A DNA stretch of 60,545 nucleotides, the filler included, from Dugesia japonica (Eukaryota): NCBI GenBank assembly GCA_001938525.1. It is 6 parts of 6 records of this genome, joined end to end, with 100 filler letters (N's around TTAATTAATTAA, not from the genome) between each part and the next. Parts side by side here need not be neighbours in the genome. Positions count along the whole stretch, not along the records: positions 1 to 10,311 come from MQRL01612613.1; 5 more parts are not named here. One strand, 5' to 3'. The notes under the pieces were generated by a model. The model saw only the letters and a list, made by a program, of their open reading frames with translations, was not told the origin of the DNA and did not search any database. This document shows, piece after piece, positions 1,427-60,545 of this stretch. The position numbers and the translations under genes were made by a program. Position 1 is the stretch's first letter. The number at the start of each line of letters is the position of its first letter.

Positions 1427-3282
1427 TCTTATTATTGTCGAATTTATTATCGTTATTATTGTCAATTTGATTATTGCAAGTATTGCCATTATTATTATTA
1501 TTAACATTAACTACTGTTTTCTATGAATACGACGAATATCCCCATTAAACTCGTCATTATCGGCATTGCAAAATGAATTAATCTCATTGGTAACCGGTTC
1601 AAACTATGAATTATATGCACTATTGCCATTACTAGCNAAGCCATATTCATTATCGACGTACTAATACTAGTAATTCTAGTATCTCCAATATTATTCCTGT
1701 TGTGATTAGGGTTAACCTCATTATAATGTTTTCATTACTATTATTGTTCCAAAATCATGGTCAATCGTAAGGTTATAATGAGTTTCGCTGTTATTAATGA
1801 CTAATTTTGAATCTGCTTGCCATCACCATGAGATCCTGTTGACACTACTACCATTTTCTCTTACTCTCGATGCGAAACTATTGAATAAATTATGTCTTTT
1901 TGTANTGAATCCTGAGACAACCGCGATTACTTTCGTCTGGAAGTCATTCCCACTCGATGAAGGAACTAAAATAAATAAACCCGTAACGAATCCGCCTAAT
2001 TTGTGCATAGGAGTGTTCGTGGTTAATTATAACTTACCCCTGTCGAACAAGAAGTTAAGCGGGCGTCAGACACCTATTAGCAAGAGTTTGATCGTAACTG
2101 GCATCCCGAGTATGCTAGCTTCTCAGATCCACAACAATCTCCCTGTATGGTTTACATAGGAGATTGAAAAAACTACTGGAGTGAGCAGTACACCATTTAA
2201 GCTATTCTGACGTTTGATGTTTAGTGTTTCATTAAATAAAATCCTAATGTCTAACAGAAATAAATCGTCCTTCAATTTTTGTCTTGATCACAAGCTGGTT
2301 TAAGATAATCTTATTTTTATCTTATAGTGCCTGAATATGGCTGGAGATTAGTCCTTGACGTAACAAATCGCATGTAATTCCATCGGGTTAAGAACCCCTA
2401 TCACCGCGACGGGAGCATCCTAGTGGATAGGTCAAATTTACCACCCTTGGAATTAATTGAGCAACGTCGAATGGATGTTGCCTAACGCTGGCTATATCAA
2501 CATTGGCCCGATCGAGGAAGACGGGAAGTCCGAGCGCCCTCTATTCCTGCATCTCCAACATTATGAGGTGACGGAGATTTCAAAAATTATGAATAANCCA
2601 ATGTTTTTCTTTAATATAATTTAGTAATTCGCCGACTTGATTTTCTCTATTAATAGGACTAAGAGTTTATACATGCGTTCGTTTTGTATTGGCTGCTTTC
2701 ATTAATTTTGGTTTTTTTCATTGAATAACTCCTCTCATTCTCGATCCATCGCTCTAAATAAGAAATTGAGGGTTGACAGTGAAAACTCCAAGATGACATG
2801 GGGTCTATATCGCTTGGCAAAACTAAATTTCGAGGCCCATGTAGCAGATGAGAAGGCTTAGAATAAAAGATATAAGCAACGGTGTAAAGACTATTGAATT
2901 AAAGCAGAAATATCTCATTCTTAAGAAAGTGCCTGGAAAGCTCAATTGAAGTCGTTTGCAAGTATCATTCGCTCTTTACACGACCATGAAAACAAGCTGG
3001 TGTGATAAACTAACGTTCGGAAACGGGTGCCAGTAGAGCCCCTTCTTATAGATAAATCCACGGTTTTGATTTGAACTTCAATGGTCTCCATTAAATTAAT
3101 TACTCATCTAATTAATCGAATTATTAAAACATTTTACGAAATAATTATACCTTTTCATATCGTAATTTTCAATTTTCGTACCACGAGTTCGACTCCCAAA
3201 TAGCATTTGCCAATGTCATAAACTACTTCAAAAATTCATCATCTAGCGATACTATGCTAAGAGATGTAAACGAACATTATTT

Positions 3283-3540
3283 CGTTACATATCACAGAAA
3301 AATAGATTGATAAAGAAAATTGAGCTCGTTTCTAAGAAGCAATTAGAGATTGCAAACCTTACGGTTAATCAGTTGTTTAATAAAGTCAATTTCTTGACAC
3401 AGTATATTTTTTATTTAACTGCTAGGCATAGTATCGAGACCTTGGCAACTTGGAATAGTAAAAATGATGAGACCGCGTTTGGTTTCACAGACGACGCGTC
3501 AGTTCAGTAGGACTACTATGAATCGTTTAATGTCTTGTAA
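3283..3540 (+). pseudogene. Decayed small coiled-coil ORF of unknown function (module gene C)
   Basis: ...KVNFLTQYIFYL...W...FGF...Q*..E...L* aligns ungapped with the minus-strand ORF at 40439-40660. Confidence 0.7.
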
Positions 3541-3559
3541 ATAAATTTCATTGCTAATT

Positions 3560-3768
3560 AACTATTCTCTGTCTTATAATAACATAAAGAGGAAATGTTG
3601 AACCCGAACTAAATGAGTGCGAGTTTGAACTCTAGCTACGAATTGAGAGTCAATGGCTCCACTTCGAAAATCTAACTAAGGACATCAGATAAATTCTTCG
3701 AGGGTTTCCGCTGAGGACTGCGTTACCCCAGTCACATTTTGTTCGACACCAACTCAGATGGAGCCCTA
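3560..3768 (-). pseudogene. Decayed unknown ORF convergent with gene C (module gene D)
   Basis: VTGVTQSSAETLEEF; nucleotide and peptide similarity to 40196-40265 (+) VTGEKQSSGEPFQEF. Confidence 0.5.
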
Positions 3769-3891
3769 AAATAAGTAATGTTTGAAATGAATGCAAAAGT
3801 AATAAATTTTAAGTAATTATTTTCACGTAAGTAGGTAGATGTGGGCGCACTGGCACACTATGAGTTATCGAACCCGCCTTCGGGGGAGGAG

Positions 3892-3951
3892 GTTGTGCTT
3901 GAATGTGTTCTTGAATTTGTGCTTGAATTTGTGCTAGAACTTGTGCTTGAT
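3892..3951 (+). repeat. 12-bp tandem repeat (TTGTGCTTGAAT-like) x5
   Basis: ttgtgcttgaat/gtgttcttgaat/ttgtgcttgaat/ttgtgctagaac/ttgtgcttgatt read directly. Confidence 0.85.
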
Positions 3952-4002
3952 TTGATTGATTGGTTAGTGACTGGAGATCTAGTTTTTTTAATTTTAAAAT
4001 AA

Positions 4003-4150
4003 TTTGGCGGGAAATTTAAAAACAATTTTTATTTTGGCGGTCGGTTCAAACAAAATATTTTTCTAAGCAAGGATCATGTGTCAGTGCGCACATTACAACC
4101 GTATACTTTACTAGTTATCGTGAATACAATTTTTTTTGGCGGGGAAATTT
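4003..4150 (+). promoter_or_regulatory. Cluster of E2F-consensus-like sites (TTTGGCGGGAAA, TTTGGCGGT, TTTGGCGGGGAAA)
   Basis: Three TTTGGCGG cores within 150 bp of otherwise very AT-rich DNA. Confidence 0.5.
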
Positions 4151-29909: not shown

Positions 29910-32900
29910 AATAAATTCTATATCTGGAAATACATCCGCACAATCTGAGGTTTTCCTTTCTTAAAGTGTTGCTTTTATCATATCCCACAAAGTTATAAAC
30001 TGTCTCTTAATTTGCCCATTTGTGTTATGATGATATAGACTCGAAACCCTGAGGATAATGGCATGTTCAGCTGCAAAATCTTTCATTGATTTAGACTCAA
30101 ATCCTCTTCCAGAATCAACTCGAATTTCTCTCGGACACCCAAACTTTAAAATACACTTCTCCATCATTGCCTTATGGTATCTTCGTCTTGTCTTGTCATT
30201 GCTATCAAGGCTATATACTTACTGCATTAATCTATTATATCGAGAACATATTTTTTTCGACCTCTGGTTTCTTGCAATGGTCCACACGCATCTATAAATA
30301 ACAACTCAAACATTTCGGCTGACTGCGTCTTTTTTGTTACTTCCTTCGGTTTTGTTGACAACACTTTAGCTTTCTGGAATGTTTTATAGCTTCGCACAAC
30401 CTCTTGTACTTTGCTCCACAAATATTTTGCATTATTTTTATGTTTCATATACTTTGCAACCTTTTCTGCTCCAGCATGAAATATTAGATGACGTATCCTC
30501 ATTATAACATTTTCTACTTTATCATCAGATATCCACGTTCCTTCATCATTTTCTTCAAAATTGCCTTGATTCTTTTGTATATCTACTTCATTTAACATCA
30601 TTGTTTTTAATTTTCCAATCTTTTAATCTTCATGTGACATTATACATTGTGCACATGTATCATACATACTTAACAACATATCCGCATTTCTATGAAGCAT
30701 TCTTTTTCTATATTCTAATTTTATATCTAAACTGCTCAAATAGTTAATCCAAGTTTGAAACTGTGATGTGATCGGTTCTTAGTATTTAGCATAAAAGTGA
30801 TTGCTTTATGGTCTATTCTAAGGATAAATCTATTTCCATATAAGTAATGTTTTAAATAAATACAAAAGTAGTAAATGGAGAGAAATTCTTTCCGCGTAGT
30901 ACAATATCCTTTCTCATGACTCGTCATTGATTGTGACCCATATGTAATTACTCTTTCTTGTCCATTATTGTCCTTTTGAGATAGTATTGCACCAATCGTA
31001 TTGAAAGTCGCATNCTTGACCAAAATAAATTTTCTATTAATATCTGGAAAGCATAATATTGGAGACATAATTAGTGCTTATTTCATTCCATTAAAAACTT
31101 CTAATTCGTTAGCCCATTCAATATTCTTGTTACTCGGCCCACTACACAGTTGTTCCAACAATCTAGCTTTTTCGAATAATCTTTAATAAATTTGCGATAG
31201 TAATTGCAAATTCCCAAAATGATTCTCATCTTCTTAACGAATATTGGTTTACCAAAGTTTTTAAGTGATTCTATTTTGTTGGATCTGTTTTGACACTTTC
31301 TTTACTGATAACGTGTCCAAAAATTTGAACTCCTTTTGCATGAATTGACATTTCTCCAGATTAACTCTTAGACCAGAATTCTTAATTTCTGTCAATACTT
31401 CACTGACTATTTCATAGTGTTTCTCCTTTGTTTCGGTAAAATGAGAATATCATCTAGATAAACAATTGCTGTATTTATTTTCCCAATTACTTTATTCATA
31501 TTTTCCTGGAACGTACCTGGTGCCACTGCAATTCCAAGTGGCATTCTATTGAAACAATAATGCCCTTGTTTAATCTAAAAAGCCGTCTTCTCTTGAGAAT
31601 CTTCAATGAGTTCCACTTGATAGTATACATTTCTAAAGTCAATTGAGCTAATATATTGTGCACCTTCCAAAGCATCCAGCATTCTTTCCATATTTGGCAT
31701 AGGAAAAGCTTGTCTTTCTGTTATTGCATTGAGCTGTCTAAAGTCTTGGCATAATCGTATATCCTTTTTTCCTTTTTTCAAACACAATGGCGCATTTTAC
31801 TGAGAATTACACTTCTGGATGATACCGTTATCATGCAGATTTTATATATGACCTTTTCAATCCTATCTTCTAGATTCATTGGTTAACGATACGGTTTGAT
31901 TGAATTTTGATTGAACATCCATTAGTGATTATTCGATGCTTCGTTAAGTCTGTTCATTCAATGTCCCATTTATCCGCCATAAATACATCCTCAATATTCT
32001 GAATAATCGCAGACAATCAATAATCTTTTTTAATTTCTAAAATCTACATTGCATGTCTCACTCGCTCACCCATCGGCATCTGTCTTCCATATTTTTACTC
32101 GATGTAGCAAACAAATTTTTCTCGATGATTATTGATTTCTACTCTTCACGTTTTTTCAGATGGTACTCAAAAATATGCTGAAATTCTACTTCATCAATTA
32201 GATCTGGTATTAGTTTCTCTACTATTATAATGTAATGCAATCGTTCCTCGCTTTTCTCTAACATTGTTTCTCAGAGTCTATTAAATTCTAGGTCTCTCTT
32301 GTATCTTATCAAACGTAATTTCTGCATTCTATTTCTCTTCAATTGTTCCTATCAGGTTTTTTTGTTAACTTACACATCATCCATACCATTTTATAATGGT
32401 AAATTCTCTCTTCTAGTCTTGGTTTATTAATGTTCGAATACCATTCCTTCGCTCCGTGACCCAGTTTTTCACATCTACCGCATAAAATGTCTGTACAAAT
32501 CCTTCTGATATGACTAATCTTTGTACACCCAAAATATTTTGATGGTTTCTTGTCTGGAGAATTTCTACTTAAATGCCCTTTTTTGTGACATGTCCAACAT
32601 TGCACATGAGAATTTTTTGGACATTCACTTTTTGAAGGCCCATAACTCTGGCATGTACAACACTGTGGTTCTGTTATTTTTGTAACTCTCTCGATATTTT
32701 GTCTCCTTTCTTCAAAACGTTCTCCGCGTGTTACACCAGCGTAACTCTTTACTACATTAATAGGTTCTCTTCTTTCTATTTCTTTCAACCAAAGATAACG
32801 TTTCTTTTATGTCTTCTACTTTCTCCAATTTTCACATGATAAAATCTTCTTCTGTTTTAGTACTATTTGCACAAATTATTAGCATTTTTGAAAAGAGTTA

Positions 32901-39790: not shown

Positions 39791-40195
39791 AATTAGTCAT
39801 ATATTTTTTATAACAGACCATCTTTTGGTTGAACTAAAAAGAGATACGCATATTTATTGTACTAAGTAAAAAAACTTGCGTACATTTATAGTATAAATGG
39901 ATAAAGAGCTTGCATCTTTAATGTTAGGATTGCATTATAATGTTTACATATGGACAATTTAGTTTTGCAAAAATGCTGGTGATGGTATGCCTAATTTAAA
40001 CTGTTTAACCAATCAGTTTGTAGTATCCAAGCTGTTAATATAAGTTGTGTTGCTTAAAAATTTGAAGTAATTACACTTAGAAGTATGTACTGTTGCTACT
40101 TGCAAATATAACATGCACCTCTGTTCGAAAACTCAGATTTTCGGTGGCCACTTATTTTTTATGTTATGCAGTTTAAACTGTATTTTAATGTTGTT

Positions 40196-40340
40196 GGGGT
40201 TCTACCTGAGTCGGAAAAGTGACTGGGGAAAAACAGTCCTCAGGTGAACCCTTTCAAGAATTTAGCCCTACCGTCCCTTTGGTAGGTTTTCAGTTTATTG
40301 TGGTTGACCTTACCCTTGATGGAAGGTGCGCGCCAATAAA
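40196..40340 (+). pseudogene. Module gene D homolog
   Basis: gtgactggggaaaaacagtcctcaggtgaaccctttcaagaattta vs gtgactggggtaacgcagtcctcagcggaaaccctcgaagaattta (3690-3735, -). Confidence 0.55.
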
Positions 40341-40438
40341 NNNNNNNNNNGGGTTCTATATATTTTCCCTACTGTTATTTGGTGATAATTAAAAATCTTT
40401 ATTATTCGAATCAAAATATTTATTTATTAACAACACAC

Positions 40439-40660
40439 TTATAACAAATCCAAGGCTTCTGGATCCAGCCATTGGTCAGGGGTAGTGGTGATGAAATTAA
40501 ACATCGCTATTTAATCATCTTCATCCCACTGGGATGTATTTGGGTTCCCAAGCTGACGCGACAAGTCAGCGATATATTGTTTCAAAGATTCCACCTTGCG
40601 TTGCAGCAAAAGTTTGTTTTCCGCCTCCAATGCTTTAGTTTGGGTTGCTAAGTCTGATTG
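40439..40660 (-). pseudogene. Module gene C homolog, 3' part, one internal TAA
   Basis: KVESLKQYIADL...W...FNF...QW...E...L*; ungapped match to the 3' part of 3283-3540. Confidence 0.7.
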
Positions 40661-41663: not shown

Positions 41664-44600
41664 TGTCAAGAATAATTCATAGTATTCAAACAAAAATTCT
41701 AAGAAATATTTCAATAAAATAATAAATATTCTACTTTACATAAAAATTTATAAAATATTTTACCAAATATTTCATTAAATAAATTTAAAATATTGACTTT
41801 TAATTTAATGAAATATCTCATTTTACATAAAAATTTCATTAAATATTTTACTTATTAATTTCAAAAATAAATTAAAAATATCGATTTAATTTTATGGAAT
41901 ATTTTATTTTACATATGTTTTAAAAATAAATTTTAATATTATATTTATAAAAATTAAAGAAAGATTTCACCGATATTTTAATCCATGAATAATTCTTACA
42001 TTCCCCCTTTAAAATATTTATTAATCTTTTCCACATTTCTTTCAATCCTCTTGCTTCTGAACTCTTTAGCAGATATCGTCTTTCATGAACTTGTTTTATC
42101 ACCTAGTATGGACCTGTATATCTTTCTTTGTCTTTTGATCTGTTTTCCACCTTGATTAGCACATCGTCTCCAACTTGAAAATGTCTCTTTGTTGGTGTCA
42201 ACTCTCCAGATTCTTCATTCTTTTCTCCATTATTGAACTATCTTTCTCTATGTATTTTCTTACTGAATATCACTCCTGCTGGACTTATGCCCAAAGTCTT
42301 CTGGCTTGTTCCATTTAGTTTATATTCAATTTCTGGTATTAACTCTGCCCAATTTTTATTCTTTTTATCTTTTAATGCTGCATTGATGTAATCTCAAATC
42401 GTTCTGAATTGCCGCTCTACTATTTCATTTGTATTATGATGATATGGACTTGATAAGCCAATTGTTAAATTCATTGAATCTGTCATCTCTTTGAAGGCTT
42501 ACGATTCGAATATCTTTTCACAATCTTCATGTATCTCTTTTGGGGCACCAAATCTCAGTATCCATTTATCTATAATCGTTTTCTTTATTGATTCCTCATC
42601 TTGTTTAACTAGGGCTGTTAAGCATATGTATCTGCTAAATTTATTTATTATGACACATATATATATCTTTTCCTTCCTTAGGTTTCTTGTAATGGCCAAC
42701 AGATATCAATATAAATAATCTCAAATGGTTCATTAGCCTTTAATTTTATAGTTTCCTCCTTTGTTCCAACTGTTGTTACTTTGTGCATTTAGCAAGATGT
42801 ACATTCTTTAATTACTTTTGACAATTTTTATCTCAAATCTTCCATATCATATTCATTGTTAAAATAATTTATGACTTTTTCCGTGCCTGCATGCACCTAT
42901 AAATTATGCATTTCTTTTACCATTTGAATTTTCTTTTCTGACGAGATCCATATTTTATCGTCTTTTGTTTTTATTATATCTACTATTAATCAAAACTTTT
43001 TACATGTTTCATTTTTCATATCATTCTTTATCTGTTCAATTTCTTCTACGTTACTTTGCCATTTATATGTATCTGAATTTGATATACCAATAATTGTTCT
43101 TGTCTTTATTTTTCCTTCCTTTGGATTCTCATAATCTGTTAAACATTGTACACACGTACCACAATTCATTTTCGACAGCATATCTGCATTCGTGTGCTTC
43201 GCACCTTGTTCACATTCCAATACCATATCCAGGCTACTAAGAAAATTCTTCCAAGTCTGAAATTGCGGAGTAATTGTTTGTCTTTTTCATAAATGCTATA
43301 GCCTTTTGGTCTGTTTTCACCAAAAAATCTTTTTCCATACAAATAATGTTTAAAATGGTTACCAAATTAGTAAATGGCCAATAATTACTTTCTTGTTATA
43401 CAATATCCTTTTTCATGAGCTGACATTGCATGTGACCCATATGCAATGACTTGTTCTACACCTTTTCATCTATTTGTGATAAGACTGCTCCAATCGCATC
43501 AAAACTCGCCTCTGTATCTAGTACAAACTTCCTTTTGATATCTGGAAAGCTCAATATCGGGGCTTTTGTTAATGCCTCTTTCATCTCATTAAAAGCTTTA
43601 TCACAATTTTCAGACCACACAAGTTTTTTATTGTTACTTCCACACAGCTCTTCCAAGCTTCTAGCTTTCTTTGAGTAATTATTGATAAATCGTCTATAGT
43701 AATTGCATATTCCCAAAAAGCATCTTAAGTTCTTCACACATTTAGATCTTCTGAAATTTTATATAGCTTCAATTTTTGTTCGATCAGTTTGGACAACATT
43801 CATTTCTATAATATGTCCTATAAATTGAATTCTGCTCGCAATAAATTATTTTTTCCGGATTAATTCTCAATCCTGATTCTTGAATTCTTTTAAAAACTTG
43901 GTCAAAAATTCAATACTGCTGCTCTAAATTTTCTGAAAATATCAATATATCATCAATGTATACTATTGTTCCTCTCAAATTTCCTAATACTTTTGTCATT
44001 AATTCTTAAAACGTTCCAGGTGCTGCAGCTATACCGAAAGGCATTCTTGTGAAACAATACTGTTCATTGTTTGTAGAGAATGCTGTTTTCTCTTGTGAAT
44101 CTTTATGTAACGGAACTTGATAATATGCATTACCCAAATAGTACTAAAATATCTTGCACCACGTAAATTGTCTAGTATTTTCTCTACACTGCACATCAGA
44201 AATGCCTGTCTTTCTGTGATTGCATTCAGATTTCTAAAATCTAGACATAATCTAACGTCTTTCCTTTCTTTTTATCAAACATATATTAAATGAGTGTTCC
44301 ATTGCAAATAACACTTTCTAATAATGCCATTGTCAAACAAATTCTTGATAGCTTCATCTATCTTGTTCTCTAAATGTATTGGTTGTCTCCATGGTTCTCC
44401 ATTTGTGATTATTTGATGTTCTGCCATTGTTGTTCTGCTGATAGCCCAGTTGTCTGCCATGAATATTCTTTTATAAATTATTATAACTGTCTTCAAATTC
44501 TCGTTAGGCTTGTTAATCAATATTTTTATTGCTGTCTGTACTCTATCTTCCTCCGTTGTATTGCGTCCATACTTTGCTTCTATATTTCAAAGATACATTT

Positions 44601-59819: not shown

Positions 59820-60545
59820 ATATTTTCCTCTTTCGTTTTTATTGTATACACTTTTTCTTCATGACATATTCTGTAATTGTAAATGTTATTTTAATTATTC
59901 TTCAAAGATTTCCATATAATATTTTTGTTTCATAAAATCGTACACCTTCTGAAATCTAGCGTGACATAATTTCTTGTGCGTTTCCGTAATGATGTCATTT
60001 TGTTTATCTTTATGAACATATATTTTATTATTTTTAAAAACAATTCCGTCTTGATATTCAAATTTTACTGTCTCTTTACTATGAATCTTATTTATTTTTT
60101 CATTAATTTCCTCATTATTATTCTGCATTTCATATTTAATGATATTTTTATTTACAACTAATATACGAGTTTGTGCTTTTCTAGTTTTAGCATCAGCTTA
60201 TTTCATATTACATTGTTTACACAGCTGGTTATTCAATGTTTATAAAGCATTTGCGTTTGAATGCTTCTCTTTTCTGTACTCCAACTTAATATTTGAACTA
60301 CTAAGAAAATTTATCCTATTTTGAAATTGAGCTGTAATTTGTTTTTGTGGTTGTTAACATAAAAGTTATCGCTTTATGGTCTGTTCGCAATACAAATTGT
60401 TTTCCGTAAAAATAATGCTTAAAGTGTTGAGTAAAGTGAAATACTGAAGGTAATTTTTTTCTCGTAATGCAATATCCAACTTCATGTTTTGACATACTTT
60501 TTGAAACGTAAGCAATGACTTTTTCTCTTCCGAAATTATCTTTTT
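59820..60545 (-). mobile_element. Ty3/gypsy RNase H and integrase zinc-finger fragment
   Basis: FKHYFYGKQFVLRTDHKA; THKKLCHARFQKVY. Confidence 0.9.

Follow-up and report, generated by a model that had tools for sequence, protein, structure and literature searches.

The window analysed here is a 60,545-nt stretch of Dugesia japonica DNA (filler included), a pack of six stretches joined end to end. Two of its pieces, near positions 3283 and 40442, are the decayed last gene of an array carried in the LTR of a retrotransposon; this gene, ORF C, is a 127-aa coiled-coil ORF. The features in the two pieces are as follows.

1881 to 2164, plus strand: an extra ORF upstream of ORF A, decayed and frameshifted, common to other old-subfamily copies and by eye an A paralogue
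2333 to 2554, plus strand: 5' part of ORF A, decayed, behind a TAG/TG acceptor (the slash marks the joint); 36% over 75 aa against an intact copy, E 2e-8
2712 to 3075, plus strand: ORF B, a decayed coiled coil; 47% over 118 aa, E 3e-27, with the LC8-type tail eroded to DKSTV
3178 to 3540, plus strand: ORF C, old subfamily, decayed, with two internal stops; its 3' half is the first gene of the sequence-only reading
3540 to 3545, plus-strand stretch: AATAAA after ORF C, in the first window piece
3541 to 3771, plus strand: non-coding LTR 3' end, previously read as a second gene, with a decayed terminus at 3771
3861 to 3873, minus strand: match to GTTCGA(A/T)AACTCA, in flanking DNA of a different repeat
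40123 to 40135, plus strand: match to GTTCGA(A/T)AACTCA, in the flank outside the LTR
40192 to 40438, minus strand: non-coding LTR 3' end, with the terminus ...GAACCCCAACA at 40192
40439 to 40660, minus strand: 3' part of ORF C, young subfamily, with one internal stop; the contig end cuts the ORF

The two 52-aa peptides that the sequence-only reading had assigned to its first gene lie where it placed them. Re-aligned, they show 13 of 52 identical residues without a gap, the TAG at 3508-3510 faces TGG, and the stop positions are the same. Their local score of 37 was equalled in 82 of 20,000 shuffles (p ~0.004), a control suggested with that reading, and is modest when taken alone. Searches of the genome (854 Mb in 648,594 contigs) with both pieces returned at least 150 matches per piece (150 of 150 scored, from 8,756 and 6,902 candidates), and many matches to the 40442 piece are free of stops. 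The 127-aa frame is open in unbroken copies and matches both window pieces; against an unbroken natural copy, window positions 3172-3486 gave E 7e-20 and positions 40660-40442 gave E 3e-41. The first gene is therefore real. A tree of 65 copies of ORF C, built with a quick search, separated two subfamilies (SH-aLRT 100), with the 3283 copy falling in a star-like cluster whose end branches are long and the 40442 copy in a cluster whose end branches are short.

The same reading had placed a second gene, with the frame VTGxxQSSxExxxEF, on the opposite strand and converging on the first. This frame is found at both places (blastn 80% over 50 nt), and the minus frame at the LTR end is often open for 55-65 codons, but it lacks codon periodicity. 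Across 28 copies the differences at the three codon positions are near equal (0.128/0.108/0.149), with dN/dS of 0.59-0.71, against 0.163/0.063/0.47 and a dN/dS of 0.03 in ORF C (pairs of at least 70% identity, qualified below). Among 19 copies, non-triplet indels were present in 165 of 171 pairs in the LTR end and in 34 of 171 in ORF C, and the LTR end is better kept as DNA (13.7% differences versus 25.8% in ORF C). Past the ORF C stop the copies remain alike over ~230 nt, as far as CCCCAACA, where they diverge. Given the flat codon positions and the frame-breaking indels, the convergent gene was rejected; what had been read as a gene is the last ~230 bp of the LTR and is non-coding. The real genes are more numerous than had been seen, and all lie on one strand.

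The motif GTTCGA(A/T)AACTCA, described as lying upstream of the second gene, is present at both places as reported, but it lies outside the LTR, ~90 and 57 nt beyond the ends at 3771 and 40192. It was found in 2 of 242 loci examined, both being the window stretches themselves, and the DNA around the first match is an unrelated repeat; the motif was discarded as a chance occurrence in the flank. A check for TIRs, and for pPolB or capsid genes linked to the ORFs, showed instead that LTR termini form the ends and that PBS and gag come next. Window positions 3830-4135 belong to another dispersed repeat, with 45 matches in the genome and several TTTGGCGGGAAA-like motifs that are presumably of the E2F type. 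At a locus related to this repeat (L246), a Cys-rich zinc-finger-like frame adjoins, perhaps from a DNA transposase.

The LTR runs from TGTTGGGG to CCCCAACA, is mostly 4-5 kb long and is flanked by 4-bp target duplications, and in all copies homology ends at CCCCAACA. The start motif TGTTGGGGTGAAAC and the end motif occur on the same strand, 2.4-5.3 kb apart, at six loci. A 4-bp duplication accompanies three of these six pairs (CATG, ATAG and ATAA, the last uninformative because it lies in a simple repeat). Clean duplications bound the solo LTRs L046 (4,925 bp) and L061 (4,087 bp), that of L055 sits in a simple repeat, the LTR of L123 is directly followed by the PBS, and two of the six pairs have neither duplication nor PBS. 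Exact junctions of LTR end and PBS, the latter of what we take to be the tRNA-Pro type, numbered 78, with 0 in a reversed control, and one recurrent purine tract repeatedly precedes the LTR start motif. Having a PBS, a polypurine tract and 4-bp duplications, the ends are LTR termini and not the TIRs of a pPolB/capsid element; the LTR start was not found in the window itself.

An integrase-LTR junction at L046 had been considered as the element's own 3' junction and was dropped, since the recurrent purine tract differs there; the junction probably arose by insertion into another Gypsy. Two contig runs join an LTR end to an LTR start with 20 nt between them (L046:9963 to 5039), and the two lie 78 nt apart at L047:5460-5538. 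These are either LTRs in tandem or joints resembling circle junctions.

The solo LTRs L046 and L061 carry three further ORFs upstream of C on the same strand, namely B (~122 aa), A (~135 aa) and Z (~61 aa). The first window stretch retains decayed A, B and C, the acceptor context of A being taken from L021, together with one further A-like frame, which matched L027, L037, L054 and L033 in tblastx (E 5e-10 to 1e-5). Two diverged tandem A paralogues, 29-39% to the reference A, occur in some lineages (L047, L049, L121, L135).

Differences between copies of Z, A, B and C follow the order position 3, position 1, position 2 in every identity class, whereas the non-coding LTR end given the same treatment is flat. 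At 70% identity or above, dN/dS was 0.03 for C, 0.07 for B and 0.08 for A, with Z saturated, values to be read with dN lowered by binning the classes by protein identity, dS near saturation and copy pairs not independent. Stop-bearing rows were left out of the alignments (A1, 19 rows; A2, 14; A3, 10). Z, A, B and C are thus under strong purifying selection. There is very little doubt that the array ORFs were coding, and they likely encode accessory proteins of the element itself. The earlier view of an old, multi-gene, virus-like mobile element conserved at the protein level was right.

Each of the four ORFs is preceded by a pyrimidine tract and AG and ends with its own stop, and the spacers between them measure ~120-170 nt. 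The coding frame begins at AG/TG in 54 of 63 copies of B and 65 of 80 copies of C. ORF C has no N-terminal ATG, and among its unbroken young-subfamily copies no Met is conserved within residues 1-100; the first Met of B lies some 23 conserved codons in. In Z and in young A, an ATG follows the AG at a gap that varies (by eye, 2-4 nt and about 9-11 nt, respectively), and this variation indicates that the gap is untranslated. AATAAA lies within 80 nt after the stop in 33 of 36 copies of C (10.6 expected), 11 of 18 of Z (0.9) and 23 of 53 of B (3.1), with the reverse-strand control also raised (Z 6, B 17), so that the signal is clear for C and weak for Z and B; for A it is weak too (2 of 19 within 80 nt).

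At PBS loci, the PBS is followed by gag. On contig C609115 the distance from a PBS at 22,526 to a slightly decayed LTR start at 294 is ~22.2 kb, so that, with an internal region of ~22 kb and two LTRs of 4-5 kb, the complete element would be near 31 kb. Gene content follows the Burro order of gag, Bcl-2-like, env, PR, RT, IN and BIR. Pfam matches above cut-off were zf-CCHC (E 6.5e-9; three gag knuckles counted by eye), the fusion protein PF24664, which is of the Monjiviricetes type, two proteases, RT, RNase H, rve, BIR and RING. Below cut-off, Retrotrans_gag (E 1.3e-4), Bcl-2 (E 9e-4) and dUTPase (E 0.007-0.009) matched at positions as in Burro. At L192, PF24664 (E 1.7e-34) lies downstream of the Bcl-2 match within one ORF, and at L195 env, PR, the dUTPase-like domain and RT share one frame. 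Two aspartic protease domains stand in tandem between env and RT (L177:6075-7238; L195). BIR (PF00653, E 8.8e-14) follows the integrase, and an IAP-type RING (E 3e-16) was found in another copy. The domains run PR-RT-RH-IN, the Ty3/Gypsy order.

Several further arrangements were observed around these internal regions. At L185-L190, upstream of the purine tract, the stretch immediately ahead of the 3' LTR holds additional small coiled-coil ORFs, acceptor-led and with an internal repeat, the last frame of which crosses the purine tract. About 300 nt past the PBS there is a conserved acceptor with ATG, followed by 15-nt tandem repeats (region of L121:5362 and other PBS loci), well upstream of the gag capsid domain. 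By eye, a Polinton-like polymerase and ATPase/capsid-like frames adjoin Burro pieces at L175:967-5890 and L196:434-2546. Window positions 13450-14126, 30200-31800, 42000-44300 and 60265-60545 hold RNase H-integrase fragments from another, ordinary Gypsy family.

Burro/GYPSM1 elements are described with an internal region of up to 25 kb, a total of over 30 kb and a gag with two or three CCHC knuckles (PMC6431247). The present element resembles them in its ~22-kb internal region, ~31 kb total and three CCHC knuckles, in its BIR and RING domains, in an env placed in frame before the protease, and in its accessory ORFs and decayed copies; a candidate Bcl-2-like domain before env and a candidate dUTPase-like domain between PR and RT, both below cut-off, stand where Burro has them. 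The available part of that account mentions no ORFs inside the LTRs, and scans of 30 segments here, from broken copies, revealed no MATH, ankyrin or SUMO-like domain. We therefore regard it as very probably a giant Burro-type Gypsy retrotransposon, its kinship with Burro-1 being judged by architecture and not by sequence. The platyhelminth GAG-ENV-POL errantiviruses with gB-type env (PMC13524379) have the same gene order and a class III-type fusion protein, PF24664, in common with it, and the portion of their main text available does not mention Burro or accessory or in-LTR genes. The element type is known; the part that may be new is the presence of at least four same-strand genes inside its LTR. 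No description of ORFs in Burro LTRs was found in the literature consulted, though the 2018 genome paper, its supplement or the Repbase entry may have one. On contig C619908 (L177:700-873 and 134-530), Z and A directly follow RING and coiled-coil ORFs without an LTR-start motif, which represents a deletion or a lineage with the array before the LTR; the location of the array inside the LTR may vary by lineage.

The AlphaFold2 model of C is a single 84-residue helix (residues 8-91, pLDDT 80.9), and the protein has a basic first third and an acidic, aromatic tail. No homologue of C was found among 1.84 billion representatives or in a word-index search (lengths 72-231), with best values of E 0.19 in the PDB and 0.82 in the Atlas; the word-index search was likewise without a homologue for B, and the libraries searched for both may contain few planarian proteins. 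Pfam gave nothing above cut-off for A, B, C or Z, in keeping with the earlier description of protein families that were not recognised. The model of A has a pLDDT of 53, and Foldseek found no match for it in the PDB or BFVD at E<=0.001. A family for A drawn from Atlas matches of 0.91-0.94 was rejected, with family agreement in 1 of 10.

ORF B is coiled-coil-like, with weak Pfam matches only, and its tail reads I-D-K-G-T-Q-T-K. The pattern [DS]K-x-[TVI]Q[TV] is found in the B tail of 26 of 28 young copies and of 18 of 51 older ones, against 0 occurrences in 25,274 background residues. Host LC8 genes are present in the genome. By the published definition of the LC8 binding motif (PMC3078936), the tail is a plausible predicted site for LC8 (dynein light chain). 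B and the LC8/DYNLL clients in that source have in common a D-K-x-T-Q-T core, a hydrophobic residue at -5 and a coiled coil beside the motif; the B tail differs in K at +2, where the clients have D/E.

Taken together, the pieces are probably decayed LTR ends of a Burro-type Gypsy in which Z, A, B and C serve as alternative last exons behind a shared leader. The shared-leader splicing, considered separately, we put at even chances. A common non-coding leader exon would be spliced to the acceptor of each ORF. Z and young-subfamily A would be translated from their own ATG, and have no shared frame because their spacing from the AG varies, while a leader ending in A would make the AUG of B and C at the AG/TG joint. 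The proteins would be accessory, acting on the host cell or the element RNA, and the predicted coiled coil of B would be dimerised by host LC8 through its DKGTQT tail. No splice joint was seen among raw RNA reads, which numbered 23-233 per run and nearly all fitted the reference copy in part, and no closer reference was present among the loci examined. GT..AG was found at 0 of the 15 contig joints listed, of 28. Coverage in the contig runs extends over spacers and repeats as that of DNA would, and is uninformative about expression. No conserved A/GT donor was found in 15 copies of the first 900 nt of the LTR, nor in 21 copies of the region around the PBS, scanned up to the last columns.

B and C share their phase after the AG, as would be expected if they were phase-1 exons joined to a short coding exon in another part of the element, so that the proteins would form a family sharing one N-terminus. 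We consider this unlikely, given that a common phase does not demand identical TG letters in unrelated ORFs and that the phase varies in Z and young A. The same element and genes could also form an operon resolved by spliced-leader trans-splicing, with the short spacers, the acceptor before each ORF and the frequent AATAAA after it matching flatworm operon candidates, which have gaps of <=300 nt in the part of the source available (PMC12582326). The flatworm leaders described there end in ATG, however, and joining this to AG/TG would shift B and C from the frame that is conserved; in addition, a conserved Met is lacking in the first 100 residues of young unbroken C. This makes an operon quite unlikely for the array as a whole, although trans-splicing could serve Z and A still.

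That the ORFs are captured host exons, carried as passive LTR cargo, is very improbable: from one element lineage to another synonymous sites have reached saturation, yet the proteins are still 70-90% alike, and the searches reported above, in libraries that may be planarian-poor, returned no homologue for B (word index) or for C (word index and the 1.84 billion representatives). Acceptors and poly(A) signals do resemble those of host last exons, and Burro elements are described as carrying host-like domains (PMC6431247). The model proposed at first, in which two convergent genes belong to a Polinton-like or DNA-viral element, retains next to no probability. The minus frame is frequently open and Polinton-like pieces occur in the genome (L175 and L196, by eye), but that frame carries no codon signal and is often frameshifted, LTR termini with a PBS form the ends, and the GTTCGA motif is flank.

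The favoured reading, alternative last exons behind a shared leader, has partial counterparts elsewhere. In complex retroviruses, small spliced genes with regulatory roles sit at the 3' LTR or within it, such as MMTV sag, HIV nef and foamy-virus tas/bet. These amount to one or two LTR genes, whereas here there is an array in a Ty3/Gypsy element, and no sequence homology was found. The Drosophila MDG1/412 sORF1 and sORF2 (bioRxiv 10.1101/2025.03.14.642691) are likewise selected short Gypsy accessory ORFs with an internal poly(A) site. As presented in the available part of that work, they are two unspliced ORFs lying after the 5' LTR and before gag in an env-less element, in contrast to at least four acceptor-led ORFs inside the LTR of an env-bearing one. 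The full combination, in which one leader serves at least four alternative last exons inside the LTR of an env-bearing Gypsy and the splice joint itself supplies the start codons of B and C, is put forward as a rather doubtful possibility.

Planarian Burro elements are described as abundant, PIWI-repressed and expressed in a tissue-specific manner (PMC8532177). A selected multi-gene array would explain the very long LTRs of Burro elements, and it would add four orphan protein families. LC8 is said to feature prominently in a fly study of Piwi co-transcriptional silencing, and for this reason a counter-defence role of the array is a testable guess. If the combined model is true, each solo LTR, of which there are hundreds to thousands per genome, would be a potential mini-unit yielding host-modulating proteins, an LC8-binding coiled coil among them, and these products may possibly be counter-silencing factors.
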